DNA of 64,000 nt, from the NCBI RefSeq assembly GCF_020402505.1, contig NZ_JADBZL010000023.1, positions 3,623 through 67,622 of the forward strand. The letters are read 5' to 3'. The notes under the pieces were generated by a model, which saw only the letters and a program-made list of their open reading frames with translations, searched no databases and was not told where the DNA came from. Positions 14,218 through 31,676 of the stretch are shown here, in pieces. Made by a program: the position numbers and the translations under genes. The stretch's first letter is position 1, and each line of letters opens with the position of its first letter. The DNA comes from Phenylobacterium sp. (GTDB taxonomy: Bacteria; Pseudomonadota; Alphaproteobacteria; Caulobacterales; Caulobacteraceae).

Positions 14218-15009
14218 GTGGACGGGCTTATGGATCATGCTCTGAAGGTCGAGGTCTCGGGCGATGTGGCAACCCTGACCCTGAACCGGTCCAGGAAGAA
14301 GAACGCCCTGACGCTTGCAATGTGGAGCACCTTGCCCGGCCTGCTGGCGGAGGTGGCGGCCGATCGGGCGGCCAAGGTCCTGGTGGTGCGGGGTGCTGGC
14401 GGGACCTTCGCGGCGGGGGCCGACATTGGCGAGTTCGAGACCGTTTATGCGACCCCGGACAGAACCCGCGACTATTTCGACCGGGTCGGCAAGGCAATGG
14501 CGGCGCTGGCGGCGTTCGAGAAGCCGACGATCGCCATGATCGAGGGGGCCTGCGTCGGTGGCGGACTGGGGTTGGCGCTGGCGTGTGATCTGCGGATCGC
14601 GGCCGCCGACGCATGGATGGCCCTGACCCCGGCCAAGCTGGGGCTGGTCTATTCGCTGCCGGATACACGCAGACTGGTGCAGGCCGTAGGCCTGTCCCGG
14701 GCAAAGGACATATTGTTTACCGGGCGGATGATCGCGGCGGAAGAGGCCCTCGTGATCGGGCTCGTCGATGCACTGCATGCGCCGGAGGCACTGGAGGCAG
14801 CGGTGGCCGAGAAGACCGCCCAGATCGCGGCGGCGAGCCAGTGGACCGCGCGCAGGGCAAAGGCCATCGTCGGCCTGATCGCCGACGGGGAGACAAGGGA
14901 CACGGACGAGACCGCGCGGTGGCTGATTGAAGCGGTCGAGGGCGAGGACTTCAGCGAGGGGCGGAATGCATTTCTGAGCAAGCGGAAGCCGGAGTTTCCG
15001 TTTCGCTAG
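14218..15009 (+). CDS. Enoyl-CoA hydratase/isomerase family protein
   Basis: LTLNR..KKNAL, FAAGADIGEF, GACVGGGLGLALACDLR. Confidence 0.92.
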   Translation: MDGLMDHALKVEVSGDVATLTLNRSRKKNALTLAMWSTLPGLLAEVAADRAAKVLVVRGAGGTFAAGADIGEFETVYATPDRTRDYFDRVGKAMAALAAFEKPTIAMIEGACVGGGLGLALACDLRIAAADAWMALTPAKLGLVYSLPDTRRLVQAVGLSRAKDILFTGRMIAAEEALVIGLVDALHAPEALEAAVAEKTAQIAAASQWTARRAKAIVGLIADGETRDTDETARWLIEAVEGEDFSEGRNAFLSKRKPEFPFR

Positions 15010-15540: not shown

Positions 15541-15589
15541 ATCGAGCGTCGGCTGCTGTTCACGCCAGAGCGCCCGGGCTTCGGCGACG

Positions 15590-15970
15590 TCAGGCCTGTC
15601 TTGCTGAGCGGCGTGCAGGGTTTTTTTTGAAGCTCAGCCGCTCGCGGTCACAGAACCGCCAGACCGCGCCATAGCTCGCTGACAGGCCCCGCTCAGCGAG
15701 AAGCTCCCGGCGCATTTCCTCCAGCGTCAGGTCCGGCTTCGCCGCGATCCGCGCCAGTAGCCAGTCCCGGTTCGCGCCCTCGATCCGGCAACCCCGGCTG
15801 CCGCCGACCGGCTTGGGCGACACGCTGCCTGTCCGACGATGGGCCTGCACCCAGCGGATCACACTGCTCACACCCACGCTGAACCGCTTCGCCGCCTGAT
15901 GTCGGCTCAGCCCGCCATCCACCGCCGCCACGGCTCGCTGCCGAAGATCATCCGAATACGGTCTCGCCAT
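15590..15970 (-). CDS. IS630 transposase N-terminal HTH part
   Basis: MARPYSDDLRQRAV...AAKRFSVGVSSVIRW...KPDLTLEEM. Confidence 0.9.
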   Translation of the reverse strand: MARPYSDDLRQRAVAAVDGGLSRHQAAKRFSVGVSSVIRWVQAHRRTGSVSPKPVGGSRGCRIEGANRDWLLARIAAKPDLTLEEMRRELLAERGLSASYGAVWRFCDRERLSFKKNPARRSARQA

Positions 15971-16057: not shown

Positions 16058-17392
16058 CTAGCTTGTTCTTTCGCCCAAAAGGGAGAGCGGTGGTAGCGTC
16101 ACCGCCAACCGCTCGGCCAACCCGAGGATCGCCTGGCTGTCGCGACCAATGATCTGGGCAGACAGGGGCAGACCGTCTCTTGACAGGCCCATCGGAAACG
16201 CCACGGCGGGTAGTCCCGCGACGTTGGCGAGGCAGGTAATGTCGGCCTGGTCCGCCGGAACGGGATCACCGAACGGGAAGGCCGGGGCGCCGGTAGTGGG
16301 GCATAGAAAGCCGAGGCGGTCGCCAATCAGGACCTCCACACGCTCCTTCATCGCCGCGATCTCGGCGCGGGCCTCAGCGAGCTTTGCCGGGGGCTGGGCC
16401 GCACCCCAGCGGAGCATGCTGGCGAAGGTCTCGGAGAAGCCGTCGGGGCGGGCCTGGAGCATAGCGGCGTGCTCTGCGAAGCCCTCGGCCTCGGAGATCA
16501 GGAGGCCCCGGCGTCGCAGGCGGCCGAGATCGATATCGAGCGGCACGGACCCTTCGAGCACGCCTTGGGCTTCGGCGGCGGCGACCAGGGCGACGAAGGC
16601 GGCGCGGACATCGTCGGGCAGGGACGCGCGGTCGGTGACGTCAAGCACCGCGAGCGGGGCGTTCGGCGAGGCGGGATCCGGCACGGCGATCTCGGCGAGC
16701 ACCGCAGCGCAGTCCCCCGCCGACCTGGCGTGGACACCGACGTGGTCGAGGCTGGGCGACAGGGGCATGACCCCCTCCTCCGATATGGCGGCGTAACGAG
16801 GCTTGATCCCGAACACGCCGCAGTAGGCGGAAGGAATGCGCACCGAGCCCATAGTGTCGGTGCCCAGCGCCACCGCACATAAGCCCGCCGCCACCGCCGC
16901 GGCCGAACCGCCTGACGATCCGCCGGCCGTGTAGCCTGCGCGCCAGGGGTTCTGAGTCCGGCCGAACCACGGATTATCTGTGACGGCGCCGAGCGCCCCC
17001 TCCTCCATGTTCAGCGTGCCGAGGATGATCGCGCCGGCGGCCCGAAGGCGCGCCACGCAGGCCGCATCACGGTCGGCGACGCGGTCGCGATAGGCCCCGA
17101 TGCCGGCTGTCCAGGGCAATCCGGCGACGGCGATATTGGCCTTTACTCCAACGAGGCAGCCGTCCAGCGGCGACAAAGCCAGGCCCGAGGCCCAGCGATG
17201 GGAAGACGCTTTCGCCGCGTCGCGTGCGCCCTCGATGTCCAGATCGACAAAGGCGTGAATCGCCGGGTTCGCCTGCTCGATCCGGGCCAGATAGGTCTCA
17301 AGCACCGCGGTAGGCCTTGCGGAGCCCTCGCCATAGGCGGCGGCGAGCCCGCAAACCCCGGCCGCGACCTCGGGCTCGAACGAGCCGGTCAT
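16058..17392 (-). CDS. Amidase signature family protein
   Basis: GVKAN, NMEEGA, AGGSSGGSAAAVAAG and GTDTMGSVRIPS (Ser-cisSer-Lys triad). Confidence 0.92.
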   Translation of the reverse strand: MTGSFEPEVAAGVCGLAAAYGEGSARPTAVLETYLARIEQANPAIHAFVDLDIEGARDAAKASSHRWASGLALSPLDGCLVGVKANIAVAGLPWTAGIGAYRDRVADRDAACVARLRAAGAIILGTLNMEEGALGAVTDNPWFGRTQNPWRAGYTAGGSSGGSAAAVAAGLCAVALGTDTMGSVRIPSAYCGVFGIKPRYAAISEEGVMPLSPSLDHVGVHARSAGDCAAVLAEIAVPDPASPNAPLAVLDVTDRASLPDDVRAAFVALVAAAEAQGVLEGSVPLDIDLGRLRRRGLLISEAEGFAEHAAMLQARPDGFSETFASMLRWGAAQPPAKLAEARAEIAAMKERVEVLIGDRLGFLCPTTGAPAFPFGDPVPADQADITCLANVAGLPAVAFPMGLSRDGLPLSAQIIGRDSQAILGLAERLAVTLPPLSLLGERTS

Positions 17393-18789
17393 CAGAACCG
17401 CTCGTCAATCAGGCGGATGGGCTTCTGACGGACCTCCACCTGGGTTAAGGCGGCGGTCTCACCACGGCCCACCACTTCGACTTCGACTTCAATGCCGATC
17501 TTGCGCTTCAGGATCTCGCCGAGGCGGCCGGCAAGGGCAGGGTCTCCCGAAGCCGAGGCCTCGGCTACCACCACGAACGTATCCCGCCCGGCGGCGTCTC
17601 GGCGAGTCTTGCAGACGAACTCGCCCGCGAACTCCGGAGCCTCGTCCAGCATGGGGCCGATGGCCTGGGGGAAGATGTTGATGCCACGCACCTTCACCAT
17701 GTTGTCGGAGCGGCCCAGGAACCCCTCGATGCGCCGGAAGCTGGCGCCGATGGACGACGGCCGGGTGATGACTTCGGTCACGTCGTGGGTGTTGAAGCGG
17801 ATGATCGGGTAAAGATCATCCTTGTAGAGGCAGGTCACGACCATGTCGCCGGGCGAGCCGTCGGCCACAGGCTTGCCTGTGTCGATGTCGCAGACCTCCA
17901 GGTACTGGGCGTCTTCCATGACGTAGAGGCCGTCGCGGTCAGGGCCCTCGCCCGCGATGCAGCCGGTGTCGCCGACGCCATACCAGTCGAAGCATTCGGC
18001 CCCGCCCCAGGCTTCGGACAGGGCCTGCTTGTCCTCGCGCCCCATGTGGCCCGAGATCATCCGCACGGGAATGTCGACGCCGGGACGCAGTCCAGCCTCG
18101 CGCGCCACCTCGGCCAGCCGCTTGATGTAATCCGCGAAGCCAAAGATGGCCGTGGCCCCGAAGGTCTTCATCAGCTCGACCTGTTGGGCCGAACGGGTCT
18201 CGACTCCCGTGCCCGCCGACATGAAGACGGCGCTGGTCCAGTGGGTCACGGCCTCGCGCACATAATGGCCGCCGTTGATCATGCCGTGGCCGTAGACCGA
18301 GTGGACGACGTCGCCCGGGCGCAGTCCCTGCCAACGATAGAGGCGGGCCAGAAGCAGGTTCTGGAGCTCACGGCTCTTGGGCCCGAACAGCAGGACCTGT
18401 GGCTTTCCGGTGGTGCCCGAGGTGGTGTGGAAGATGACGGGCGGGCGTTTGGCGGCGGGGTAGCTGTCGAAGCCGGCGAAGTCGCCGAACGGCGGCGCGA
18501 TTTCCAGCGACTTCATGATGTCGGACTTGTCGAAGCTGGGCAGGCTCGGCAGGTCGTCGAGGCTCTTGATGTCGCCCTCGGCGATGCCGGCGGCGCCCCA
18601 CAGACGACGATAGAAGGCGGTCTTCCACGCGCGAGCGACGCAGCGGGCGAACAGCGTCTCTTGTCGGGCGCGCAGCTCGTCGCGGCTGATGGAGGTCACC
18701 AGCCTGGTGAAGGCATCCCCGATGGGGTGGTCACGAGCAATGGCGGCGAAATCGATCTCGTCCCAGTAGTTGCGGTGGGTGTCGGTCAT
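17392..18789 (-). CDS. Phenylacetate-CoA ligase (PaaK/F390)-like AMP-forming ligase
   Basis: HTTSGTTGKP, WYGVGD, PIIRFNTHD and GRSDNMVKVRGINIFP. Confidence 0.88.
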   Translation of the reverse strand: MTDTHRNYWDEIDFAAIARDHPIGDAFTRLVTSISRDELRARQETLFARCVARAWKTAFYRRLWGAAGIAEGDIKSLDDLPSLPSFDKSDIMKSLEIAPPFGDFAGFDSYPAAKRPPVIFHTTSGTTGKPQVLLFGPKSRELQNLLLARLYRWQGLRPGDVVHSVYGHGMINGGHYVREAVTHWTSAVFMSAGTGVETRSAQQVELMKTFGATAIFGFADYIKRLAEVAREAGLRPGVDIPVRMISGHMGREDKQALSEAWGGAECFDWYGVGDTGCIAGEGPDRDGLYVMEDAQYLEVCDIDTGKPVADGSPGDMVVTCLYKDDLYPIIRFNTHDVTEVITRPSSIGASFRRIEGFLGRSDNMVKVRGINIFPQAIGPMLDEAPEFAGEFVCKTRRDAAGRDTFVVVAEASASGDPALAGRLGEILKRKIGIEVEVEVVGRGETAALTQVEVRQKPIRLIDERF

Positions 18790-20153
18790 CGGCGGGCTCC
18801 GAGGAGAGAGAGGATCGAAGCGGCGTCAGGCAGGGCCTCGAACCGGTCGATGGCGTCGGCGAGCGCGGCCGCATTAGAACCGAGGCCCCCGAAGTCGAGG
18901 CAGGTCGCCTGCTTGGCCAGGTGCTGCTCGCGGGTCAAGGGTTGTTCGGGCGAACCCAACTGAGCCGTGATCGTGTGTCGGAACAAGCGACCATCGGTCG
19001 TGTTGACAGTAAGGGTCGCCGGCGTGAAGGCGGCGGGGTCGGGGTTATCATCGACCTCGACGCGGATGCGGTCCGCAAGCTGGAGAAGCGCCGGATCGGA
19101 CAGCCGCTCCGGCGTGAAGTCAGCGAGACCCACGGTGCCTCGGGCGAGAACTATGGCTCCAAGCCACGGCAGGCAAAGCCGCGCCCAGGCTGGAACCATG
19201 CCGGCGCCGGGGCGACGCCCGACGAGGCGGTGGATGAGGGGCGGCGCACGATAAACGATCTCCGCCACATCCTTCGAAGTCAGTCCGTGATCCGCCATAA
19301 GGGTCTGAAGGGCGACAATGCCTCCGTGGGCCGCGCGGCCGGTCGGGAAGGGCTTCCAGCTTACCTCGGCGATGCGGAAGCCGGGGGCGGGGTGGGTCAG
19401 GGGTGCGGCGTCGTGTGCCGTCTCAAACAGGGTAAGGTAGCCGAACGGCCCTTCCAGCGAAGCCTCTGGGCCTGGCAGTCCAGCTTCAGCCAGATCAACC
19501 GCCATTACGGCGGCGCGGGCGGCGTTGGCGATCTGGATTGGCAGCGCTGGCTTGCCCTCGGCGTGGGCCTGCATTGTGCCCGAGGCGAAAGCGAGGGCAT
19601 AGCCGAAGGCGGAGACACCCTGATTCACCGGCAGACGGCGCAGCGAGATCAGGGCGGCGATGCAGCCAAAGACTCCCGCCGTCGCCGGGCGGAAGAACTT
19701 GAGCGGCGTGCTGGCAGCGAGCCCCAGGGAGGCGGCGACCTCGACCCCGGCGACAAGGGCTGTCAGCAGGCCTTCGCCGGTGACGGGTTTGCCCTCGGAG
19801 GCGGCGCGGTCGGCCTCGGACAGGATCACGGCGCCAACAGTCGCCATGGGGTGAACGACGGCCGGCTCATGGACGCAGTCGAACTCCTGGGCGTGGATCT
19901 GGAAGGCGTTGACGAAGGCGGCCGAGGGCTGGGGCAATCGCACATCGGGCCGGCCGAGCACGCCGCAGGCCGAGCCCTCGCCCCAACGCCTGGCGGCGGC
20001 GAGCACGTTGTCGGCAAGCGGTGCGTGGGCTCCGGCGGCACCGACGCAAAGGGTATCGTGCAGGAAGGTCTTCGCCGCCGCTCGCGCAGCAGGGTCGATG
20101 TCCGCCCAGGTTAGGGCCAGGACGCGCTCGCCCAGCGTGCGAGACAGGGTCAT
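18786..20153 (-). CDS. MmgE/PrpD family protein
   Basis: AFVNAFQIHAQEFDCVH, VHP, WKPFPTGRAAH. Start MTLSR overlaps the upstream stop. Confidence 0.88.
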   Translation of the reverse strand: MTLSRTLGERVLALTWADIDPAARAAAKTFLHDTLCVGAAGAHAPLADNVLAAARRWGEGSACGVLGRPDVRLPQPSAAFVNAFQIHAQEFDCVHEPAVVHPMATVGAVILSEADRAASEGKPVTGEGLLTALVAGVEVAASLGLAASTPLKFFRPATAGVFGCIAALISLRRLPVNQGVSAFGYALAFASGTMQAHAEGKPALPIQIANAARAAVMAVDLAEAGLPGPEASLEGPFGYLTLFETAHDAAPLTHPAPGFRIAEVSWKPFPTGRAAHGGIVALQTLMADHGLTSKDVAEIVYRAPPLIHRLVGRRPGAGMVPAWARLCLPWLGAIVLARGTVGLADFTPERLSDPALLQLADRIRVEVDDNPDPAAFTPATLTVNTTDGRLFRHTITAQLGSPEQPLTREQHLAKQATCLDFGGLGSNAAALADAIDRFEALPDAASILSLLGARR

Positions 20154-21499
20154 GCGTCGCGCCCCGGCAGGGCGGCCGAAAGGTCCGCAACCGTGGTCCT
20201 GACGCCCAGCCCCTGGACGGCGGCGATCAGGCGCTCGGCCGCATCCGGGTTCATGCCTCCCCAGGCCAACAGGGCGCGGGCCTTGTCGCAAACTGCACCG
20301 GGCGACAGGGGGTTCTCGGGATCGCCGAGTGCGTCAAGCGTTTCGATCCGGTGGTCTACGGCGCCTGCCGTGGCGATCAAACGCGCGCCGAAGCGGGCCG
20401 GATAGGTGGCGGTCAGGTCGTCGGCCACGGCGACCGAGACGCGGGCGCGCATCGCCGCGATCTCCGGATCGGCCAGGGCGGCGGGTTCGAAGCTGTCAAG
20501 GCCCGCGTCGCCGCGGATCAGGGCGACGGCGACGCTGTGCTGGAGCGAGAACTTGGCCTCCGGGGCAGTCGTCGGCGCAGGCTTGTCGCAGAAGAGGACG
20601 CTATCGCGGTAGGTCTCGACCCGCACGGTGTCCGGCAGCCCGGCGATCCGCGCGCGCAGAGCAAGGGCGGCGTCGATGGTGGGGTGGGCGTGACGGCAGG
20701 CGGCGTGGGGCTTGAAGCTTACTTCGTGCATGAACCAGCTGTGGGCGGGAATCAGTACGGCCTCGGGGTCCGCGTCAGGGGCCATGGCCGGGAAGAAGCC
20801 CTGCTCGCCTTCCAGCACCCTGAGCGGCCCGCGGAAACCGTCGCGCGCCAGCAGAGCCGAAGCCACGCCGTTCGCCGCAGCCCGTCCGTCGTGAAGCGCC
20901 TTGACCGACCCAGGTTCATGCCGCGCCCGCCAAAGCCCGGCGCCCTGCTGGCCGGCTAATCCGAGCGCCCAGGCGGTCCGTTCGTCATCCAGTCCCATGA
21001 GGCTCGCACCAGCCGCCGCCGCACCGAATCCACCGACGGTGCCGGTCGGATGGAAGAAGCGATAGTGCGAGGCCCCGGCTGCCCGGCCGATGCGGATCAT
21101 GACCTCATAGCCGCGAACGACCGCGTCTAACAGCGCATCGCCGCTCGTCACTCCGAGATGCTCGGCCAGCGCCAGGGCGGCGGGCATGACCACGGGGCCA
21201 GGGTGCAGCAGGGCGCGGCGATCGACGTCGTCCATCTCCAGGATCGCTCCGGCTGGACCGTTGGCGAGCGCCGCCGCCTGGGGCCCAGCGCGAGCGCCGC
21301 CGATGATGCTGCAGGCGCCCGTGCCCTCTGCCTGAGCCAAACCCCGGACCCGCTCCGCGTCGGACTCCCGTGCTCCCGCCACGGTACAGCCGACCCAGTC
21401 GAGCAGGTGCAATCGGGCCCGCGCGCGATCATCCGGCGAGACCGGCCTCGCCAGCAGAACCGACAGTCGTTCGGCGATGGAGGACAAATGTCCGGACAT
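20150..21499 (-). CDS. MmgE/PrpD family protein (second)
   Basis: HLLDWVGC, ILEMDDV, HPG, FHPTG, FKPHAACRHAHP and EAKFSLQH. Confidence 0.9.
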   Translation of the reverse strand: MSGHLSSIAERLSVLLARPVSPDDRARARLHLLDWVGCTVAGARESDAERVRGLAQAEGTGACSIIGGARAGPQAAALANGPAGAILEMDDVDRRALLHPGPVVMPAALALAEHLGVTSGDALLDAVVRGYEVMIRIGRAAGASHYRFFHPTGTVGGFGAAAAGASLMGLDDERTAWALGLAGQQGAGLWRARHEPGSVKALHDGRAAANGVASALLARDGFRGPLRVLEGEQGFFPAMAPDADPEAVLIPAHSWFMHEVSFKPHAACRHAHPTIDAALALRARIAGLPDTVRVETYRDSVLFCDKPAPTTAPEAKFSLQHSVAVALIRGDAGLDSFEPAALADPEIAAMRARVSVAVADDLTATYPARFGARLIATAGAVDHRIETLDALGDPENPLSPGAVCDKARALLAWGGMNPDAAERLIAAVQGLGVRTTVADLSAALPGRDA

Positions 21500-21501
21500 A
21501 T
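21486..21501. promoter_or_regulatory. Operator motif B
   Basis: AAATGTCCGGACATAT, core palindrome ATGTCCGGACAT. Overlaps the prpD-like start codon in a divergent promoter region. Confidence 0.7.
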
Positions 21502-21554
21502 GGTGTTATCGCGTCCCCGACCCTCGCCGGTCAAGCCGGAGCCATCCTCGACCC

Positions 21555-22805
21555 ATGCCGTATTCCGAGACGATAGACGCTGCTATCGGCGCCCTCAAGT
21601 CGACCTTGCCAAACGGCGGCCGTGTCTTCGTCCAGGGCTGCGCGGGCGAGCCGCTGGCGTTGGCGGAGGCCCTGGCGCGGCAGCCCGAAGCGGCGGCGAG
21701 GCTGACGTTCGAAGGCGTATGGATACCGGGGGTCAATCGCACGGACTGGGCCGGGTTGCATGCCCTTGCACGGGCCGAGGCCATCTTTCTGGCGCCCGAA
21801 TGGCGCGACAGCTTCAGGGCGGGTCAGCTGACCTTCTCGCCCATGACCTACACCCAGGTCTGGAGACGGCTATCGGGGCGCCCGTTCGACGCCGGAGTCT
21901 TCACCATTGCTCCAGCGGGCGCGGACGGTCGTTGCAGTCTCGGTGTCGCGGCCGACTTCAGCCCGGCCGTGTTCGACCGAACCCGACTGCGGATAGGCCT
22001 GATCCATGCGGCCATGCCGGCCGTGTGTGACGGGCCGACCGTCCCGCTGGACACCTTCGATGTCGTGGTGCAGGTCGACACGCCCCTGCCGGGCTATTGC
22101 GCGGGCACGATCGATCCGGTCAGCGCCGCCATCGCCGCGCGGGTTGGGGCCTTGGTCCCCGAGGGTGCGACCGTCCAGACCGGCCTCGGCAAGATCGGCA
22201 TGGCAACGCTGGTAGCGCTGGCCGATCACCGGGGCCTGTCGATCCACTCCGGCATGGTGACCGAGCCGCTGATCGCATTGCTGGATCGCGACGCCGTGGA
22301 GGGGGTGACGACCGGAGTCGCGCTCGGTTCGGCCGACCTCTACGCCCGCGTCGCGACCGATCCGCGTGTTCGCTTCCGTTCAGTGGGCGAGACGCACGCG
22401 ATCTCGACGCTCGCGGCCATCCCGCGCTTCATCGCCGTTAACTCGGCGATCGAGATCGATCTGTTCGGGCAGGTGAACGCCGAGTGGATGGATGGACGGC
22501 AGGTGTCGGGGGGCGGTGGTTTGATCGACTTCCTTCGCGGGGCCTGGGCGTCCGACGGCGGGGTGCCGGTCGTCGCCCTGCCAGCCTCAGCCAAGGGCGA
22601 TGCGCTCAGCCGGATCGTGCCGCGCCTGTCGTGTCCGCCCAGCGTCGGTCGAGGCGATCCGGTCGTGATCGTGACGGAGCACGGCGTCGCCGATCTGCGC
22701 GGTTTGTCGATCGATGCGCGGGCTGCAGCTCTGATCGACGTCGCAGCACCCTCGCACCGCGATCGATTGGCCGAGGCCTGGTCCGCGATGCGACGGGCGA
22801 TGTAG
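21555..22805 (+). CDS. Family I CoA transferase / acetyl-CoA hydrolase-like protein
   Basis: VQTGLG, NSAIEIDLFGQVNAE, GGGGLIDFLRGA and VTEHGVADLRG. Confidence 0.88.
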   Translation: MPYSETIDAAIGALKSTLPNGGRVFVQGCAGEPLALAEALARQPEAAARLTFEGVWIPGVNRTDWAGLHALARAEAIFLAPEWRDSFRAGQLTFSPMTYTQVWRRLSGRPFDAGVFTIAPAGADGRCSLGVAADFSPAVFDRTRLRIGLIHAAMPAVCDGPTVPLDTFDVVVQVDTPLPGYCAGTIDPVSAAIAARVGALVPEGATVQTGLGKIGMATLVALADHRGLSIHSGMVTEPLIALLDRDAVEGVTTGVALGSADLYARVATDPRVRFRSVGETHAISTLAAIPRFIAVNSAIEIDLFGQVNAEWMDGRQVSGGGGLIDFLRGAWASDGGVPVVALPASAKGDALSRIVPRLSCPPSVGRGDPVVIVTEHGVADLRGLSIDARAAALIDVAAPSHRDRLAEAWSAMRRAM

Positions 22806-22813
22806 GGGAAACC

Positions 22814-23527
22814 ATGGCGTCCCCCCGTTATCGTCAGCTCGCCGAGACCCTGCGCGCCGCCATTGCTCGCGGCGACTTCCCCGTCGGGTCTCAGCTGCCG
22901 CCCGAACTGGAGCTTGCCCAGACCCACGGGGTGTCGCGCCACACCGCTCGCGACGCCATCCGCCTGCTGAGGGAGGCCGGGCTGATCGCACGGCGACGGG
23001 GGGCGGGCACCACTGTGATCGCCGCCTCCAGCCCTCAGGCCTATGTCCAGCCGCTGGGTGGGGTCGAGGATTTGATGCAGTATGCCCAGACCGCCCGGCT
23101 GACGGTGCTGACCCAGGTCGAACGTCCGCTGACGTCCGAGGAAGCGGCGCGGATCGGTGGGGACCTGTCACGAGACTGGCTGGTGATCGACGGGCTGCGC
23201 ATCGCGGAGTCGCCGCCACTGGCCCTGTCGCGGATCTATGTACCCCAGCCGTTCACCAGCGTTGCGGGTGATCTGGGCGAAGGTCGCTCTGTGTATGCCT
23301 TGCTTGACGATCGGTTCGGGGTGTCGGCAGGCCGGATCGAGCAGGAGATCACGGCGGAGTTGCTGTCCGCAGTGGACGCCAGGACCCTTAAGGCCGAGAC
23401 GGGTGGGGCCGCACTGCGGACGCTTCGTCGCTACTTCGCCGAGGACGATACCCTGATCCTGGCGTCGGACTCCGTCCATCCTGGGGGGCGGTTCGTCTAT
23501 GCGATGACATACCGGCGGGAGGGATAG
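22814..23527 (+). CDS. GntR-family regulator (UTRA), second
   Basis: PRYRQLAETLR...LPPELELAQTHGVSRHTARDAIRLL...RRRGAGT. Confidence 0.92.
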   Translation: MASPRYRQLAETLRAAIARGDFPVGSQLPPELELAQTHGVSRHTARDAIRLLREAGLIARRRGAGTTVIAASSPQAYVQPLGGVEDLMQYAQTARLTVLTQVERPLTSEEAARIGGDLSRDWLVIDGLRIAESPPLALSRIYVPQPFTSVAGDLGEGRSVYALLDDRFGVSAGRIEQEITAELLSAVDARTLKAETGGAALRTLRRYFAEDDTLILASDSVHPGGRFVYAMTYRREG

Positions 23528-23609
23528 AGGTCCCTCCCCTTCCTAGAGGCGGATCTGAGCTCGGGGCGACCACACGGAGGGTCCCAGCCGCACATGCCGC
23601 CATTCGTGG

Positions 23610-24770
23610 CTACCGCCCTCCACTATCTCGCAGTCCCCGTCCCCCAACGGCAGAGCATCCAAGCCGCGCCCGGATATCCGCACCGTGTTCGTCCAGCGAC
23701 GGCGCCTTTGGGTCTATCACCGCAGGCTCTTCGCGAAAGCGGATGGGCGTGCCGACGATTTCGTTGCCGTTCGCGTCCCGCGCCAGCATCTCCCGTTCGA
23801 CCAGCGCCGGATCGTCGAAGGCATCCTTCAGCGTCCGGACCGGCGCCCAGCAAACGTCCTTGTCGGCGAACCAGGTCTGCCACTCCGCCAACGTTCGGCT
23901 CGCGAACGTCTCACGAAGGAAGACTCGCAACGGCTCCTGCCCCGGCCCCGGCGGCAGCTCGGCGCACCGGACCAGATCCTCGCGGCCGAGCGGCGTCAGC
24001 AGGTTGCGAGCAAACTTCACCTCGGCCCCACCCAGCGCGAGCCAGCATTGGTCGGCGGTGCGGTAGAGGCCGTACATGGCATTGCCGCCCCAGGACCGTT
24101 CGTCCTTGACGACGTGGGCCTGCCCGGTCGCGAAGATCCGGCCCGTGACATTCGGGGTCCAGGCCATGACGCTGTCAAACATGGCCACATCCAGATAGTC
24201 GCCTTGCCCGGTCTCTCGCTTGCGCAACAGCGCCATCAGGACGCCCGAAAGCGCTGTCAGCGACCCGAGCGCATCGGCCACCGGCATGCCGGGCATGGCG
24301 GGCAGACCGTCCTGTCCCTCATTCAATGACACCACGCCTGCCAGCGCCTGGACCGCCACGTCATGTGCAGGGCGATCCCGATAAAGTCCGTCCTGCCCGA
24401 AGGCCGAAATCGCGCAGTAGACCACGCCGGGATTGACCGCCCGCACGGCATCGTAGTCGACTCCCAGCCGCAAGGCGACGCCGGGCCTGAAGCTCTCGAC
24501 CACGACGTCGGCTTCGGCTGCGAGCGCCATGAAGATGGCATGATCCGCCGGGTCCTTAAGGCTCAGTTGGATGGAGCGCTTGCCGCGATGAGTGTTCCTG
24601 AACCAGACGCTCTCCCCACCCTTGCGGTAACCGACGTGACGGGTGGGCTCGCCCTCTCCGGCCGGCTCAATCTTGATCACCTCGGCCCCGTGGTCGGCCA
24701 TCATCATTGTCAGCATTGGTCCCGGAAGGAACAGGCTGAGGTCGAGGACCTTGACCCCTTCGAGCTTCAT
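23610..24770 (-). CDS. CaiB/BaiF family III CoA transferase
   Basis: LEGVKVLDLS...PGP, GAEVIKIEP, RGKRS, ADVVVESFRPG and PAHD. Confidence 0.92.
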   Translation of the reverse strand: MKLEGVKVLDLSLFLPGPMLTMMMADHGAEVIKIEPAGEGEPTRHVGYRKGGESVWFRNTHRGKRSIQLSLKDPADHAIFMALAAEADVVVESFRPGVALRLGVDYDAVRAVNPGVVYCAISAFGQDGLYRDRPAHDVAVQALAGVVSLNEGQDGLPAMPGMPVADALGSLTALSGVLMALLRKRETGQGDYLDVAMFDSVMAWTPNVTGRIFATGQAHVVKDERSWGGNAMYGLYRTADQCWLALGGAEVKFARNLLTPLGREDLVRCAELPPGPGQEPLRVFLRETFASRTLAEWQTWFADKDVCWAPVRTLKDAFDDPALVEREMLARDANGNEIVGTPIRFREEPAVIDPKAPSLDEHGADIRARLGCSAVGGRGLRDSGGR

Positions 24771-25906
24771 TCGCCCAGCACCCTGGCAGTCTGCTCGCCC
24801 AGCTTGGGAGCCCGCACGCCCGGCGCGCGCCTGCCATCGATCTTGACCGGGCTCGCCAGCATGTGCAGCCCACCGTCGCGGTCAGGGTGCTCAACCACGT
24901 CCCGCATACCGACCTCGGTGACGAAAGGATTGGACAAGGCCTCGGGCACGTCGCGAACCGGTGCGAACGGAACATCGCCGCCGAACAGACCCAGCCACGC
25001 GTCCGTCGTTCGGATCGAGGTGACCGCATCTACCGCCTCGCTAAGGGCCGCCAGATTGGCCCGACGCGACGGGATGTCGGCGAAGCGCGGGTCTGCCATC
25101 AGGTGCGGCGCGCCCGCCAGCTCGCAGAAGCGGGCCCAGAACTTCGGCGTCTGGCACATCAGAAGCCCCCAACCGTCCAGGGTCTTCACCAGCTGCGAAG
25201 GCGCGATCGAGGGATGGGCGCCCCTCGGCAGGCGACCGACGTCGTGGCCCTCGTTCATGGCCCACACGGCGGGGTAGCTGAGCTGATGCAGCGCCACGTC
25301 AAACAGGCTGACATCCACGTCACAGCCGACGCCGGTCTCGCGCGCCTTCAGAATGGCGCTGACCGTGGCCATGGCCCACATCGTCCCCGTCATGAAGTCG
25401 ACCATCGACAGTCCGAACCGTGTCGGCGGAGCATCGGGCTCTCCGGTAAGGCTCATGAACCCGGCCTCGGCCTGCATCAGGTAATCATAGCCGGGCCAGG
25501 CCTCGCGGCTGTTGCCCCGCCCATAGGCCGAGAGGTGGGCGCAGACGATGGATGGCTTGGTGTCCTTTAGCGCTGGATAATCGATGCGCATCTTCGCCGG
25601 CTGATCGCCACGCAGGTTGTTGACGACGGCGTCCGCCGAACGCACCAGCCGCTCGAAGTCGGCACGGCCCTGCGGAGTCTTGATCTCCAGCGCCACCGAG
25701 GACTTTGAGCGCGAGAAAGTCTGAAAGAACTGGCTGTCCTGATCGCCGAGAAAGTAGGGCCCGGTCTGGCGACTGACGTCCCCGCCCATGGAGGGAGCCT
25801 CGATCTTGATGACCTCCGCCCCCAGCTCGGCCATCAGCATGGTGCCGTAGGGGCCTGCCCCGTACTGCTCGACCGCGAGGACGCGGACGCCTTCGAGGGG
25901 GCGCAT
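24767..25906 (-). CDS. CaiB/BaiF family III CoA transferase
   Basis: PLEGVRVL...AGPY, GAEVIKIE, PGYDYLMQAEAGFM. Confidence 0.92.
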   Translation of the reverse strand: MRPLEGVRVLAVEQYGAGPYGTMLMAELGAEVIKIEAPSMGGDVSRQTGPYFLGDQDSQFFQTFSRSKSSVALEIKTPQGRADFERLVRSADAVVNNLRGDQPAKMRIDYPALKDTKPSIVCAHLSAYGRGNSREAWPGYDYLMQAEAGFMSLTGEPDAPPTRFGLSMVDFMTGTMWAMATVSAILKARETGVGCDVDVSLFDVALHQLSYPAVWAMNEGHDVGRLPRGAHPSIAPSQLVKTLDGWGLLMCQTPKFWARFCELAGAPHLMADPRFADIPSRRANLAALSEAVDAVTSIRTTDAWLGLFGGDVPFAPVRDVPEALSNPFVTEVGMRDVVEHPDRDGGLHMLASPVKIDGRRAPGVRAPKLGEQTARVLGE

Positions 25907-27099
25907 CAGATCTTGTTCCTCGCCACCAGCTGCTTGGCGATGATGATACGCTGCATCTCATTGGTGCCCTCACCGATACACATCAGGGGGGCATCGCGGT
26001 ACAGGCGTTCGATCACGTATTCCTTGGAGTAGCCGTAACCGCCGTGGATGCGCATCGCCTCGGTGGCGACGTCGACGGCGGTCTCGGAGGCGAAGTACTT
26101 TGCCATGCCGGCCTCCATGTCGACGCGACCGCCGGCGTCGAAGGCGCGGGCGGCGTCCTCGACCAGCAGCTCAGCCGCGCGCGTGCGGGCGGCCATGTCG
26201 CCGAGCTTCAGCTGGATGGCCTGATGCTCGGCAATAGGCTTGCCCATGGTCTTGCGGGTCTGGGCGTAGGCGACGCTCTCGCGCAGCGCCCGCTTGGCGA
26301 TGCCGACCGAGCGGGCGGCGATGTTCACGCGGCCGATCTCCAGCCCGCCGGTCGCCATGGCGAAGCCCTTGCCCTCCTCGCCGCCGACGAGGCTCAGCTC
26401 GGCGTCACAGCGATAGCCGTCGAAGATGAACTCACCGGAGTCGATGCCCTTGTAGCCAAGCTTCTCCAGCTTCTTTCCGTTCGAGACGCCCGGCAGCGGC
26501 GCCTTGGTCTCCGGGTCGATCTTGGACACGATCAGCATCGACATGCCCTTGTGGCGCGGCTGGGCCTCCGGGTCGGTCTTCACCAACAGGGCGCAGCAGT
26601 GGCCCATGATAGCGTTGGAGATCCAGGTCTTGGTCCCGGTCACGACGTAGTCCGAGCCGTCGCGCGCAGCGACGGTACGGATGGCCTGAAGGTCGGTGCC
26701 CGCGTCCGGCTCGGTCAGGCCGAGGCCGCCGCGCATCTCGCCGGTGACAAATCGAGGCAGCCAGTAGTCCTTCTGCTTCCGGGTGCCGAAGCGCTGAACG
26801 ACGGTGGCCATCATCAGGTGGGAGTTGAAGATGCCCGTCAGGCTCATCCACTCCTCGGCGATACGCATGACGATGCGCGAGTAAGTCGTCGCCGAAAGGC
26901 CGAGGCCTCCGTACTCCGGATCGATTATGGCTCCGAACAGGCCCAGCTCGGCCATGTCGTCCACCAGATCGGCAGGCCAGATGTCGCCGTGCTCGAGCTC
27001 CATGGCGACGGGGCGGACCTTCTTTTCGATCCACTTGTCTATGGCGTCCAGGAAGGCGCGTTCGTCAGCGTCGGTGATGATCGAACTATGGGCGTTCAT
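25906..27099 (-). CDS. Acyl-CoA dehydrogenase
   Basis: LTEPDAGTD, GTKTWISNA, KLGYKG and RDAPLMCIGEGTNEMQR. Confidence 0.93.
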   Translation of the reverse strand: MNAHSSIITDADERAFLDAIDKWIEKKVRPVAMELEHGDIWPADLVDDMAELGLFGAIIDPEYGGLGLSATTYSRIVMRIAEEWMSLTGIFNSHLMMATVVQRFGTRKQKDYWLPRFVTGEMRGGLGLTEPDAGTDLQAIRTVAARDGSDYVVTGTKTWISNAIMGHCCALLVKTDPEAQPRHKGMSMLIVSKIDPETKAPLPGVSNGKKLEKLGYKGIDSGEFIFDGYRCDAELSLVGGEEGKGFAMATGGLEIGRVNIAARSVGIAKRALRESVAYAQTRKTMGKPIAEHQAIQLKLGDMAARTRAAELLVEDAARAFDAGGRVDMEAGMAKYFASETAVDVATEAMRIHGGYGYSKEYVIERLYRDAPLMCIGEGTNEMQRIIIAKQLVARNKI

Positions 27100-27100
27100 G

Positions 27101-27622
27101 TCAGTAGTTCCCGGCGCGATCCTCGACCGCGTTGCCGCGCGCCGGGATCAGCATGTTGCGCACGAAGGTGCAGACTCTCACCCCGTCCTGGTTCAGGCCG
27201 ATGGTGCGGATGGTAACGATGCCCTGGCCCGGCCGCGACTTGCTCTCGCGTTTGGCCAGGACCTCGCTCTCGCTGTAGATGGTGTCTCCTGCGAAGACGG
27301 GAGCTGTGAACTTGACCTCATCCATGCCCAGGTTCGCGATGGCCTTCTGGCTGCAGTCCGTCACGCTCATGCCGATCAGCAGCGCCAGGGTGTAGGGGCT
27401 GACCACGATGTTCCGTCCGAACTCCGAGGACTTGGCGAACTCGGCGTCGAAGTGCATCGGGTGGGTGTTCATTGTCAGCAGCGTGAACAGGTGGTTGTCG
27501 TACTCCGTCACCGTCTTGCCGGGACGGTGCTCATAGACGTCACCGACGACAAAATCCTCGAAATAGCGACCAAAGGTCTCCCGATAGCGTTGGGGGCCGA
27601 CTTCCTTGAACTTCTGCACCAT
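27101..27622 (-). CDS. MaoC-family (hot-dog) dehydratase
   Basis: GRYFEDF.VG, DNHLFTLLTMNTHPMHFD and PVFAGDTI. Confidence 0.88.
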   Translation of the reverse strand: MVQKFKEVGPQRYRETFGRYFEDFVVGDVYEHRPGKTVTEYDNHLFTLLTMNTHPMHFDAEFAKSSEFGRNIVVSPYTLALLIGMSVTDCSQKAIANLGMDEVKFTAPVFAGDTIYSESEVLAKRESKSRPGQGIVTIRTIGLNQDGVRVCTFVRNMLIPARGNAVEDRAGNY

Positions 27623-28411
27623 TTAGGCACCTCCGACGTGTTCGAGCGTGCGCATCGCGGCGCGGATCACGGGTTTTTCGATCAGCTTGCCGTCCAGCAG
27701 GGCGGCGCCGCCGCCGGCCGCCTTGAAGGCCTCCAGTATCCGGCGCGCGCGGGCGATTTCGACCTCGGTCGGTGTGAAGACGGCGTGAACTGGGCAGATC
27801 TGCGAGGGGTGGATGCAGGCGCGGCCCGTGAAGCCCATGGCCTTGATCCGTCGAGTCGAGGCCGAGAGGTCCACCTCGTCGGCGATGTCGAGGTGGGGCA
27901 CGTCCAGGAGCTCGACTCCCGCCCGCGCGCAGGCGGCGGCGAGTACGCTCCGCGCATGGAACAGCGGCTCCCACTCCATGGTGCAACCCAGGTCGGCGGC
28001 ATAATCTGCCCCGCCGAACAGGACGCCGACGACGCCCGGCGCACCGGCGATCTCCCAGGCGGCGTGCAGACCGCCGGCGCTCTCTACGATGGGCCACAGG
28101 GGGGCGTCGGTCTTGACCCGTACGGCGGCGACATCGGCGGCAGAGGCTACCTTAGGAATCATGACGAAGACCGGCTTTACGGCCGCGAGCGCGTCCCGGT
28201 CCGCCTCGCCCTCAGCCGTGCCGACCGCGTTGATCCGCAGCCCGAACAGGCCATCCAGGGCCGCGACTGCCACCTCGCGCGCCGCGTCCTTGCCGTCAGG
28301 CGTCACGGCGTCTTCCAAGTCGATGCACACGGCGTCGGCCCCCGCATTGGCCGCCTTGTCGAAGCGGTCGGGTCGCGAACCGGGTACGAATAGGAGAGAG
28401 CGATAGGCCAT
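27623..28411 (-). CDS. CitE/HpcH-family acyl-CoA lyase (citryl/malyl/citramalyl-CoA lyase-like)
   Basis: RSLLFVPG, DLEDAV, MIPKV, GGADY and CIHPSQI. Confidence 0.9.
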   Translation of the reverse strand: MAYRSLLFVPGSRPDRFDKAANAGADAVCIDLEDAVTPDGKDAAREVAVAALDGLFGLRINAVGTAEGEADRDALAAVKPVFVMIPKVASAADVAAVRVKTDAPLWPIVESAGGLHAAWEIAGAPGVVGVLFGGADYAADLGCTMEWEPLFHARSVLAAACARAGVELLDVPHLDIADEVDLSASTRRIKAMGFTGRACIHPSQICPVHAVFTPTEVEIARARRILEAFKAAGGGAALLDGKLIEKPVIRAAMRTLEHVGGA

Positions 28412-28424
28412 GACGCCTCGGATC

Positions 28425-28440
28425 AAATGTCCGGACATTC
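28425..28440. promoter_or_regulatory. Operator motif B
   Basis: AAATGTCCGGACATTC, 14 bp upstream of the citE-like start. Confidence 0.7.
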
Positions 28441-28461
28441 TGTCGGAGCCAGGCGCGGAGG

Positions 28462-29091
28462 TCAATCCGTCCCGACCGCCATGCCTCTTTGGACGGCTGG
28501 GCGTCTGGCTACCTCGTCATGCCACCGCCTGAGCGACGGGTAGCCGTCCAGCCAGCCGTCCAGCCGCTTCGCCGAGGTTGCAACGACCGGGAACAGCAGG
28601 CAATCGACGATGCTGAAAGTCGGACCGCAAACCCAAGCCCGCTCCGCCAGAAGCGCCTCGAACACGTCGAGTGAGCGGCGCGCGCCACTGGTCATCGTCT
28701 CGATGAGCCAGGGGTCGGGCTTGGGAGCCAGGTGAGTGGCGAAGAACTGCATGGCGAAGGGCATGGCGACCGAGGATGAGATGGCGGCGGCCCACATCAT
28801 CTGCTCGGCGCGCGCGGCCGGGTCGTCGGAGATCAAGCCGTTTGCGCCCTTCTCGGCCGCGTACCAGGCGATGGCGAGCGTCTCGGCCAGCACCAAAGGC
28901 CGCCCGCCCGGTCCTTCTGAGTCCCGCATCACCGGGGCCTTTCCGAAGGGGTTCAGCGCGAGGAACTCCGGCGTCTGGTGCTCGCCGTTTGTGAGGTCGA
29001 CCATGGTCGCGCGCCAGGCCAGCCCGGCCTCGTCCAACACGATGTGGACCTTCTGACCGTTCGCCGTCGGGACGGACCAGAGGTCAATCAT
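28462..29091 (-). CDS. Glutathione S-transferase (YfcG-like)
   Basis: PTANGQKV, LNPFGKAP, LAETLAI and FSIVD. Confidence 0.88.
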   Translation of the reverse strand: MIDLWSVPTANGQKVHIVLDEAGLAWRATMVDLTNGEHQTPEFLALNPFGKAPVMRDSEGPGGRPLVLAETLAIAWYAAEKGANGLISDDPAARAEQMMWAAAISSSVAMPFAMQFFATHLAPKPDPWLIETMTSGARRSLDVFEALLAERAWVCGPTFSIVDCLLFPVVATSAKRLDGWLDGYPSLRRWHDEVARRPAVQRGMAVGTD

Positions 29092-29972
29092 GCGACGGGC
29101 GGCGGAACGGCGGCGGCGAAGGCCTTGGCGATCCTTGCGCGGCTGGCGATCCAGACCCCAGGCTTCCCTGCTACGTGCTCCAGGAAGCCTCGGAATGCGC
29201 CGATCCGACCGGGTCGGCCGATGATCCTAAGGTGGAGCCCCAGGCTCATCATCCTGGTCTCTCCTTCCATGGCCTCGGCGTGCAACTGATCGAAGGTGTC
29301 GGTGGCGTACTGTAGCCAGTCCCGCGCCGTCAGCGCCGGGGCCAGCCAGAACTTCATGTCATTGGAGTCAAGCGCATAGGGCACAATGACGATGGGTTTA
29401 GCGCCCTCTGAAGTCTCGACCACGTCCCAGAACGGAAAGTCGTCGGAGTAGTCGTCCATGTGATAGGAGAACCCCTCCTCGGCCAGCAATCTCCGGGTCG
29501 CATCGGTGTGCAAATAGCGGCTGAGCCACCCGATCGGACGCTTGCCGATCGTGCGCTCGATGGACTGCCAGCCCTTCCGGATGAAGTCGCGCTCCTTCTC
29601 CTCGTCCATCCAGAACTGGTGCGCCCAGCGCCAGCCATGGCAGCAGACCTCGTCGCCCCGCTCGGCGATCCTTGCCGCAAGCTCCGGAGCTCGCTCCAGC
29701 GCCAGAGCGGCCGCCGTCCAGGTCGCCTCGATCTTGTGGTCGTCCAGCAGCTTCAGGATGCGTGGCGCCCCCGCCTTTATGCCGTACTGATAGTTGGACT
29801 CGTTTCCGTGCATCCGCATCGGCCGCTTGGGCACGGCAGACAACTCATCAACGGGCTCGGGCCCCTTGTCGCCGTCGCGGATATTCTGCTCCGCTCCCTC
29901 CTCGACATTGACGACAATGGACAGGGCCAGGCGATGGCCACCGGGCCAGATGAAGTCGGAGGGTGCGGGCAT
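29088..29972 (-). CDS. Polysaccharide-deacetylase-fold (PuuE allantoinase-like) protein
   Basis: VVNVEEGAE, ESNYQYG...G..R, HGWRW, PYALDSND and MMSLGLHLRIIGRPGR. Confidence 0.88.
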   Translation of the reverse strand: MPAPSDFIWPGGHRLALSIVVNVEEGAEQNIRDGDKGPEPVDELSAVPKRPMRMHGNESNYQYGIKAGAPRILKLLDDHKIEATWTAAALALERAPELAARIAERGDEVCCHGWRWAHQFWMDEEKERDFIRKGWQSIERTIGKRPIGWLSRYLHTDATRRLLAEEGFSYHMDDYSDDFPFWDVVETSEGAKPIVIVPYALDSNDMKFWLAPALTARDWLQYATDTFDQLHAEAMEGETRMMSLGLHLRIIGRPGRIGAFRGFLEHVAGKPGVWIASRARIAKAFAAAVPPPVA

Positions 29973-30042
29973 CGAAAACTCTTGCGGAGGATCTTATGAT
30001 CGATTGATACAACTTTATTCGTTTTCGGGGGAAGGGTACGCG

Positions 30043-30527
30043 ATGATCATCGGCGAAATTGAGGTCCTGCGCCGGCTGCACATTCTGGCCATGGTCTACT
30101 TGTTGGGGGGAGTGGGGGGGTCTTCATCGCCTTGCTAAGCCTGACCTGGTCCGCCTTCTTCCAGCGCGAAACGGATCTGGGTTTCCGTCTCACAAAGATC
30201 GATGAGACACTGCGATAAATCCTCATTCCGGCCTTGCTGATCGTCGGGGTCGCCTCCCTTCTGGACCACGGTCCGCTGGCTGTCGGTGAAGGCACGCTGT
30301 GGTACCCGGCGAAGATCACCGTCTATGGCTTGATGCTGGTCATTGGGCTTGGCCTGCGCTTCATCATGCGGGCGTGGACCACGCGCTTTCGTCGCCTCGC
30401 CAAGTGACCCAACCCCCGGGAGGAAGCCGCGCTGAAGCGCGAGATCGCCATCGGACGCGGCCTGGCCCATGTCTTCGGAATCGAGATTGCGTCGGCGGCG
30501 TTCCTCGGGGAAGCCAAACCATTCTGG
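30043..30527 (+). pseudogene. Decayed paralog of the 7099-7749 membrane protein
   Basis: MIIGEIEVLRRLHILAMVYLLGG, frameshifts in G-runs near 30105-30120, then ...KITVYGLMLVIGLGLRFIMRAW..., in-frame TGA at 30405 and ...AFLGEAKPF. Confidence 0.7.
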
Positions 30528-30531
30528 CCGT

Positions 30532-31356
30532 TCAGTGGGGCTCTTCTCCGCCGGAGACGTTCAGGCTTTCGGCAGTGATGTATTTGGCCGCGTCCGAGCA
30601 TAGGAAGGCGACAGCGTCCGCTGTGTCCTGCGGCAGGCCAGGGCGGCGCATGGGAATGCGATTGGCCATGGCCTGCAGGTAGTCGTCGACCGAGGCAGCC
30701 CCCACGACCCTGGAGAAGTACTCGTTCTGCCAAGCCCCCAGACCCGTGGTGACGTGGTTGGGGCAGACGTTGTTCAGCGTGATCCCGTGCGGGCCCAGTT
30801 CAATTGCCGCCGACCGCGTCAGACCGACGAGGCCGTGCTTGGAGGCGGTATAGGCCTGGGCGTGGGGAAAGCCGGACTTGGCGGCCTGGGAGGCGATATT
30901 GACGATCCGTCCACCACGGCCCTGTCTGATCATCACCTCCGCAGCCGCCTGGATGCCGTAGAAGCAGCCAGACAGATTGACGTCGATCACGGCGCGCCAG
31001 TCGTCGGGCGTCACATCCATCAGGGGCTTCATGATGTAACCGATGCCGGCGTTATTGACCCAGATGTCGAGCCCGCCGTGCGTCTCGACCGCATGGGCCG
31101 CGAGAGCCCGCACCTGGTTCGGATCGCGCACGTCGCAAACACAGGTCGAGGCGCCCGGCAGCTCGGCTGCGATCGCCGCCATCTCTCCGGTCGCGCCAAT
31201 CATACCGCCCGGCGTGGCCGCATCCCTTGAAGCGCCGATGTCAGAGATGACCACCCGCGCGCCTTCCATCGCCAACGTCTTGGCGATCGCCTCGCCCAGA
31301 CCCTTGCGGCGGCCTGATCCGGTGACGACCGCCACCTTGCCATCGAAGCGCCCCAT
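30532..31356 (-). CDS. Short-chain dehydrogenase/reductase (SDR)
   Basis: VVTGSG...GLG, VNNAG, NIASQ and YTASK. Confidence 0.93.
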   Translation of the reverse strand: MGRFDGKVAVVTGSGRRKGLGEAIAKTLAMEGARVVISDIGASRDAATPGGMIGATGEMAAIAAELPGASTCVCDVRDPNQVRALAAHAVETHGGLDIWVNNAGIGYIMKPLMDVTPDDWRAVIDVNLSGCFYGIQAAAEVMIRQGRGGRIVNIASQAAKSGFPHAQAYTASKHGLVGLTRSAAIELGPHGITLNNVCPNHVTTGLGAWQNEYFSRVVGAASVDDYLQAMANRIPMRRPGLPQDTADAVAFLCSDAAKYITAESLNVSGGEEPH

Positions 31357-31676
31357 CAGAGACTCTTGGTCACGAGGAAGGTCACGTCGACCATCGACTG
31401 GAACTCACCTGCGATCTTCTGCGCCTGCGGAGTGGAAATCTCGGCGAAGAATTGATCCATATCACGGACATCAATGGTTTCGATGTAGCCATATGGCGGG
31501 GCGACGTCGGAGCCGAGCAGACCTTCGACCTTGTGGACCTGAAAGTCGTCGACAGACGCCATGGCCCTGACCGCAGGAATGTCGGTCGCCTTGGCCCACG
31601 CTTCATAGGCCGCCGGATTCTGGCCGGTCTTCAGGTTGAAAAGGGCTAAGATTCGGGTGGCGGGCATGTGCATCAT
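31356..31676 (-). CDS. HapK/RedY-like dimeric alpha-beta barrel protein
   Basis: LFNLK.G...YEAWAKATDIP.V...VDDF...LLGSDVAPPY.YIE.IDV matches my recollection of the REDY-like HapK family. Confidence 0.68.
   Translation of the reverse strand: MMHMPATRILALFNLKTGQNPAAYEAWAKATDIPAVRAMASVDDFQVHKVEGLLGSDVAPPYGYIETIDVRDMDQFFAEISTPQAQKIAGEFQSMVDVTFLVTKSL

Follow-up and report, generated by a model that had tools for sequence, protein, structure and literature searches.

The 64,000-nucleotide window of Phenylobacterium sp. analyzed here (contig NZ_JADBZL010000023.1, positions 3,623 to 67,622; all coordinates below are those of the window) carries a module of catabolic genes around the gene of a GntR-type regulator, GntR2, and two promoters of this module share a palindrome that we refer to as operator B. 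The resulting regulon is real, conserved, and apparently unpublished, and it looks like a variant of coenzyme A (CoA)-dependent branched-diacid catabolism and not like an itaconate cluster. We favor, with reasonable though not high confidence, a regulon whose enzymes open a cyclic imide or lactam, strip off its nitrogen, and degrade the branched succinate so formed via a CoA route. A sequence-only reading of the same DNA had listed two prpD genes, paaK, and an amidase gene, a divergent CoA-transferase-gntR pair, and a citE-maoC-acad-caiB-caiB series. Profile matches and translations recovered all of these genes, intact and in the claimed order and orientation, with revised starts for prpD2 (20153), the CoA-transferase-like gene (21555), and citE (28411).

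Operator B and its promoters

The palindrome had been placed at 21486 and 28425. Both 13-mer matches exist, but their true spans, 21487-21499 and 28426-28438, begin one base later than claimed. The sites and the promoters on which they lie are as follows.

21488..21499, no strand: operator B site 1 (ATGTCCGGACAT), a 12-bp perfect palindrome that also forms prpD1 codons 1 to 4
28426..28439, no strand: operator B site 2 (ATGTCCGGACAT at 28427), a 14-bp perfect palindrome overlapping the citE -10 hexamer
21505..21534, minus strand: likely prpD1 promoter (TTGACC, 18 nt, GATAAC, 5 nt, ATG), kept in Caulobacteraceae loci
28437..28465, minus strand: sigma-70-type promoter of citE-maoC-acad-caiB-caiB (TTGACC-17-CAGAAT), its -35 hexamer overlapping the GST stop codon

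These are the only two operator B sites in this genome. Exact copies of ATGTCCGGACAT number two in the 2.87-Mb assembly, both on conserved promoters, and an order-3 Markov model predicts 0.30 copies genome-wide and 0.0013 per 12.4 kb. Site 1 precedes the divergent CoA-transferase-like gene by 55 bp and starts with the in-frame ATG of prpD1, which is also the start codon in the B. aurifodinae gene call; the site encodes residues M-S-G-H of PrpD1 in Caulobacterales. Because this ATG lies within site 1, only five bases past the TTGACC-18-GATAAC promoter, the arrangement suggests a leaderless prpD1 mRNA with a putative start inside the operator. Site 2 overlaps the -10 element of the citE promoter, 15 bp upstream of citE, and TTGAC recurs at equal spacing from the site in most orthologous citE-side loci. 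A search for a promoter of the divergent CoA-transferase-like gene found none. Chance and coding constraint were rejected as sources of the palindrome: its wobble positions do not vary, and the palindrome is kept where it is noncoding.

GntR2 as the predicted reader of operator B

22814..23527, plus strand: GntR2, HutC subfamily (PF00392, GntR; PF07702, UTRA), predicted reader of operator B

At the prpD-side position, 22 other loci carry WTGTCCGGACAW exactly and 2 more carry it with one mismatch; on the citE/maoC side, it is exact in 17 other loci. The loci span about ten proteobacterial families, with one genome outside the class, and include noncoding positions. The sequence-only reading had staked its regulon on conservation of the motif in orthologous promoters, and the motif is indeed conserved there, beside GntR2 orthologues, the closest of which (85-95%) come mostly from Brevundimonas, Phenylobacterium, and other Caulobacteraceae. 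The ligase and ring hydrolase described below also occur in five genomes that lack a GntR2 orthologue, and the site is absent from those loci. The sequence beside gntR2 in family f30 is TTGTTCGAACAA, a symmetric double change, and helix residue D/E47 is replaced by Gln (D47→Q). This residue corresponds to helix-turn-helix position 43, which has been reported to correlate with the bases of HutC sites (PMC4494728). Conservation, co-absence, co-variation, and the distinct operator of the island's other GntR together make GntR2 the predicted reader of operator B. Along with promoter position, they support the earlier proposal of a separate regulon putatively read by the GntR encoded at 22814.

That the palindrome has a GntR/HutC operator core holds for its GT-N4-AC spacing but not for its central pair. 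Operators of the HutC subfamily (GTMTAKAC; PMC4494728) likewise have a GT-N4-AC palindrome, A/T flanks, and an adjoining GntR-UTRA gene, whereas their central TA is CG in operator B. The literature searched contained no description of an operator B regulon.

Control by the island's other GntR (GntR1, 7819-8661) is unlikely, since its own candidate operator is a different, 24-bp palindrome and its helix differs. Operator B is present in G074, G062, and G791, where GntR1 has no match.

By binding WTGTCCGGACAW, GntR2 would repress both promoters; bound at site 1, it would probably also repress its own operon. Induction by a pathway intermediate, as the sequence-only reading proposed, is plausible. 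On a Pseudosulfitobacter plasmid, a GntR2-like regulator and operator B head a maoC-prpD-acad-citE cluster that lacks a neighboring ligase gene, so a diacid or its CoA ester would fit as inducer, without this being proof. A single structure prediction of GntR2 in complex with the CoA-transferase-like protein scored 0.00; it yielded no verdict and is not used as evidence.

The CitE arm

27623..28411, minus strand: CitE-family C-C lyase (NF038242, 208 bits; PDB 3QLL, E 8e-46; 8KHL, E 8e-40)
27101..27622, minus strand: MaoC-type hydratase, RipB-like (NF038241, 232 bits; 55% identical to an annotated RipB)
25906..27099, minus strand: acyl-CoA dehydrogenase, FadE3-like (PDB 4IV6, E 5e-120; Gly376 before catalytic Glu377)
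24767..25906, minus strand: family III CoA transferase CaiB1 (catalytic Asp170 present)
23610..24770, minus strand: family III CoA transferase CaiB2 (catalytic Asp166 present)

The gene content supports CoA-dependent degradation of a branched dicarboxylate, which would end in CitE cleavage. CitE-family lyases cleave malyl-type CoA esters, their substrate being a 3-carboxy-3-hydroxy acyl-CoA. The superfamily's Arg and Mg-binding Glu and Asp are present in CitE (R59, E110, D136) and kept in its orthologues, and both CaiB proteins have a conserved catalytic Asp (D170, D166). In the dehydrogenase, Gly376 may leave room for a beta-branch in the substrate.

The sequence-only reading had equated these parts with Ict/Ich/Ccl or RipABC, that is, with itaconate/methylsuccinate degradation (RipABC or Ict/Ich/Ccl/Mcd/Msi) under GntR control. 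The layout gives this assignment some footing: MaoC resembles an annotated RipB, the best structural matches of CitE are RipC (3QLL) and a Pseudomonas aeruginosa lyase (8KHL), and the list of gene families fits the Pseudomonas/Cupriavidus cluster (PMC12290011). At family level, the assignment falters. CitE and MaoC score below the cut-offs for RipC/Ccl citramalyl-CoA lyase (375 bits) and RipB/Ich itaconyl-CoA hydratase (340 bits), respectively, and the MaoC motif is TMNTHP, that of the annotated RipB being TMNTQQ. The dehydrogenase, compared for kinship to the methylsuccinyl-C4-CoA dehydrogenase (PA0879) type, is 31-33% identical to two dehydrogenases of Pseudomonas-type ich-mcd-ict clusters, and the CaiB proteins are 31-38% identical to those of such clusters, which were identified by gene layout only; these two dehydrogenases also lack the C-terminal Glu.

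A lone MaoC gene, its product 72-75% identical to the window's, occurs in streamlined genomes of 1.3-1.4 Mb and 34% GC (L123:9157-9675, L124:8908-9426), with the rest of the module not nearby.

A CoA-transferase fold without its catalytic Glu

21555..22805, plus strand: Cat1-fold (RipA/4-hydroxybutyrate CoA-transferase-like) protein, with G233, H281, and L323 in place of Glu, Asn, and Gln

The Cat1 fold of the divergently encoded protein is confirmed by its model (pLDDT, 94.5), for which the top Foldseek match is RipA (E 4e-34; TM, 0.89), and the QxGhG loop is present (Q208-T-G-L-G). Gly233 aligns with RipA Glu249, the residue mutated in RipA E249A, so the catalytic Glu of RipA and family I enzymes is lacking. 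This residue corresponds to Glu294 in AarC (PMC3180442 for RipA). Gly occupies the position in all 134 homologues. The three replacements (Glu to Gly, Asn to His, Gln to Leu or Ala), the last two affecting residues of the 4-hydroxybutyrate CoA-transferase active site, are concerted, and the clade splits from Glu-bearing enzymes with 100/97 support. His281 is invariant and aligns with the oxyanion-hole Asn, which we take to be AarC Asn347 (PMC4876117).

The closest parallel, by published description, is ThnP/ThnO of anaerobic naphthalene degradation (PMC11659651). ThnP is likewise a Cat1-family protein with Gly (Gly238) at the catalytic-Glu position; it catalyzes solely intramolecular CoA transfer, its substrate is a branched dicarboxylyl-CoA, and an internal anhydride has been proposed for the reaction. 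The substrate class matches the role proposed here. The dehydrogenases are alike, too, both ThnO and that of the module lacking a bulky residue before the catalytic Glu. By this analogy, the Glu-less Cat1 protein is a probable intramolecular CoA transferase.

The same protein invites a different view, namely, that the regulon shortens an acid side chain of an intact ring (e.g., a pyrrole or imide propionate) by PaaK activation and subsequent beta-oxidation, with the Glu-less protein acting as a His-dependent acyl-CoA hydrolase/isomerase or CoA-ester binder. PaaK relatives activate aryl-substituted acids, the invariant His281 sits at the oxyanion-hole position, and elsewhere Glu-less relatives adjoin thiolase and MaoC genes. 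The module, however, has no thiolase, CitE chemistry requires a 3-carboxy-3-hydroxy acyl-CoA, and the sole characterized enzyme that shares this Gly is a transferase that shifts CoA; we regard this view as very improbable.

Glu-less Cat1 proteins were also observed outside the island, beside dUTPase in Caulobacter and beside thiolase, MaoC, and acyl-CoA dehydrogenase genes in other proteobacteria (L118:5001-6239, L089, L090, L105, L112, L116, L120).

Two atypical MmgE/PrpD proteins

20150..21499, minus strand: MmgE/PrpD-family protein 1 (keeps E88, H99, Y146, H150, K200, K263)
18786..20153, minus strand: MmgE/PrpD-family protein 2 (keeps H87, E90, H101, K267)

Methylsuccinate isomerase and IDS epimerase share a residue set of H85, D/E88, H99, Y145, H150, K198, and K266 (IDS numbering; PMC12290011), of which PrpD1 retains six of seven and PrpD2 four. 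In PrpD1, H85 is replaced by Ala (Asn in most orthologues); PrpD2 lacks the equivalents of Y145, H150 (now R155), and K198 (now L204). Since the changes are fixed across orthologues, they do not reflect decay. The lost carboxylate-binding residues would be in keeping with a substrate that is a mono-amide, a CoA ester, or a bulkier diacid.

Both PrpD proteins, therefore, lack residues conserved in methylsuccinate isomerase, which, with the Gly at the Glu249 position, further argues against the itaconate assignment. Yersinia-type itaconate degradation (RipA/Ict, RipB/Ich, RipC/Ccl) shares a Cat1-fold protein, a single-domain MaoC, and a CitE-family lyase with the module, but the module adds a dehydrogenase, two CaiB, two PrpD, a ligase, an amidase, and a ring hydrolase; its RipA-like protein has no catalytic Glu, and its MaoC and CitE fall under the equivalog cut-offs. 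The regulators differ as well, GntR in the module versus LysR genes beside the Burkholderia rip locus. The Pseudomonas/Cupriavidus cluster (Ict, Ich, Ccl, Mcd, methylsuccinate isomerase) shares a family III CoA transferase, a dehydrogenase, MmgE/PrpD, a MaoC-fold hydratase, and CitE. In contrast to it, the module has a dehydrogenase of another, FadE3-like subfamily, altered PrpD active sites, a hydratase of the short RipB type, and nitrogen-removing enzymes attached. With no role in itaconate catabolism for an amidase or an imide-type hydrolase, we judge the assignment quite unlikely.

The link to nitrogen

17392..18789, minus strand: PaaK-like AMP-forming CoA ligase of an unnamed subfamily (TIGR02155, 156 bits versus a cut-off of 646; PDB 2Y4O, E 5e-43)
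16058..17392, minus strand: amidase-signature enzyme (PF01425, E 3e-84; triad K84, S159/S160, S183 present)
29088..29972, minus strand: PuuE-allantoinase-like cyclic-amide hydrolase (TIGR03212, 244 bits versus 425; PDB 3CL6, E 8e-62), outside the stretch 16058-28440 originally drawn

The module is larger than first drawn and includes the PuuE-like ring hydrolase in every module genome tested; SDR, HapK, and an enoyl-CoA hydratase-like protein adjoin it in several genomes. Among 400 alphaproteobacterial genomes (E ≤ 1e-100), the ligase and the hydrolase occur in exactly the same 17, from at least nine families, although related genomes are not independent, and in nearly all loci the amidase gene stands after that of the ligase. 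PuuE allantoinase (PDB 3CL6) is the best characterized relative of the ring hydrolase, which nevertheless falls under the TIGR03212 cut-off, and no purine-catabolism genes were recognized within the window. A ring-opening amidohydrolase and an amidase would convert an imide to an amic acid and then to a diacid, whereas itaconate needs neither.

MaoC occurs in 64 of the 400 genomes, and one regulator could serve two routes, in which prpD-paaK-amidase and the ring hydrolase would act on a nitrogen heterocycle and citE-maoC-acad-caiB-caiB, as a generic branched-diacid module, on a different fragment of the parent molecule. The wider spread of the MaoC arm, its presence without a nearby ligase on the Pseudosulfitobacter plasmid, and G228, with ligase and ring hydrolase and no close MaoC, speak for such a division. 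Against it, 16 of the 17 ligase genomes have MaoC, and the arms are interleaved, with prpD2 moving from one to the other; we hold two separate routes to be rather unlikely.

A proposed pathway

In the single route that we favor, the regulon would supply the lower, cytoplasmic half of nitrogen-heterocycle catabolism. The PuuE-like enzyme would open a five-membered cyclic imide or lactam, and the amidase would free ammonia. The two atypical MmgE/PrpD proteins may act on stereochemistry or on the position of a double bond, perhaps at the level of the mono-amide or of the CoA ester, the latter made by the PaaK-like ligase or the CaiB pair. The Glu-less Cat1 protein could then shift CoA to the other carboxyl via an internal anhydride, as proposed for ThnP, after which the dehydrogenase and MaoC would yield a 3-hydroxy-3-carboxy acyl-CoA. 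Given CitE-family chemistry, retro-Claisen cleavage would produce an acyl-CoA and a 2-oxo acid. As substrate, we predict a substituted succinate other or larger than itaconate or methylsuccinate. Sites, gene content, conservation, residue changes, and co-occurrence are observations; binding, repression, every reaction and its order, and the substrate are what we infer from them.

Several points weigh against this proposal. The co-variation of helix and site rests on one lineage; two CaiB proteins and a ligase exceed the activating capacity that one linear route needs; the citE-maoC arm is far commoner than the ligase arm, so the arms may not share a substrate; Glu-less relatives are also found in unrelated contexts; and ThnP/ThnO belong to another organism and pathway and were likened through their published description.

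Extent of the regulon and its surroundings

The window lies on a 71.5-kb contig (assembly GC content, 68.5%), and an island of ∼48 kb encloses the module. This island also encodes two TonB receptors, a CpcT/CpeT-like protein, DUF3598 and DUF1838 proteins, HapK, LeuCD-like and ICL-family enzymes, and GntR1. Further features adjoining the module are the following.

30532..31667, minus strand: hapK and SDR genes, upstream in the citE string (operator A here, operator B in G791)
14218..15009, plus strand: crotonase-fold protein, by eye without both usual catalytic Glu residues

Operator A (AAATGATATA-N4-TATATCATTT) has six copies in the island (7763, 14132, 31707, 35125, 40196, 46922) and none elsewhere in the assembly, and it is presumably read by GntR1. 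The copy at 31707 heads one co-oriented string, hapK-SDR-hydrolase-GST-citE-maoC-acad-caiB-caiB; the operator B promoter lies inside this string, which a decayed gene interrupts. In other genomes, operator B also heads the PuuE-like hydrolase gene (G281, G110), hapK-SDR, DUF3598, a crotonase-fold gene, a nitrilase-like gene, and membrane-protein/flavoprotein genes. Because operator B precedes these further genes, the border between the operator A and operator B regulons is plastic. G791 has a minimal form under operator B: amidase-paaK-prpD1; CoA-transferase-like-gntR2; and hapK-SDR-hydrolase-prpD2-citE-maoC-acad-caiB-caiB. DUF1838, the ICL-family lyase, the flavoprotein, and GntR1 were looked for in G791 and not found. 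Since it carries this compact regulon without these genes, a lower, separable module is a fair description.

Operator B also flanks a TonB receptor in G017 (L067:4137, 4226), where one promoter has interleaved A-B-A operators (L068:3655-3779). The decayed gene, for a membrane protein (30024-30530, plus strand), has two premature stops and lies between the SDR and ring hydrolase genes; its relatives have no such stops in the aligned part, and an orthologue stands behind operator B in G017, G255, and G455. The crotonase-fold gene comes after the amidase gene in many orthologous loci; in the window, a transposase pair (15022-15970), IS630-like by sequence appearance and missing from orthologous loci, lies between the two. 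Insertion-sequence remnants occur at the left edge of the island (1988-3105) and before leuC (about 40090-40170). Two AT-rich inverted-repeat sites (TGTAATCAGTGTTTACA and a near mirror; 59823-59880), beside a probable TetR-type gene (59164-59811), likely represent a third, unrelated operator. G228, an alphaproteobacterial genome of 5 Mb, matches DUF1838 ∼60 times, a large expansion of an uncharacterized family, and it has seven proteins related to the island flavoprotein.

A possible tetrapyrrole source and significance

Breakdown of pyrroles and bilins gives alkyl maleimides. The CpcT-like, DUF3598, and HapK neighbors hint at a pyrrole or bilin source, and bilin or chlorophyll fragments are plausible as the regulon's feed. 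We only tentatively extend this to an as yet undescribed pathway for fragments of tetrapyrroles (bilin, chlorophyll, or heme), such as alkyl-substituted maleimides or succinimides; the regulon would be its lower half, removing nitrogen and consuming the carbon with a widespread Glu-less CoA-shifting enzyme and two new MmgE/PrpD activities. Literature on DUF1838/DUF3598, bilin and tetrapyrrole catabolism, and RipB held nothing on this cluster.

A pathway present in ∼4% of the sampled alphaproteobacterial genomes, and with no published function in the literature searched, can now be given a conserved operator, a likely regulator, and a compact set of enzymes, and annotation of such clusters as itaconate degradation should be avoided. 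The analysis also draws attention to a large family of Glu-less homologues of family I CoA transferases (at least 134 sequences), for which only one parallel has been characterized and whose hosts include aerobic, culturable bacteria such as Brevundimonas bacteroides DSM 4726. If pyrrole or bilin debris were indeed the feed, the regulon would raise the question of bacterial mineralization of tetrapyrrole fragments.

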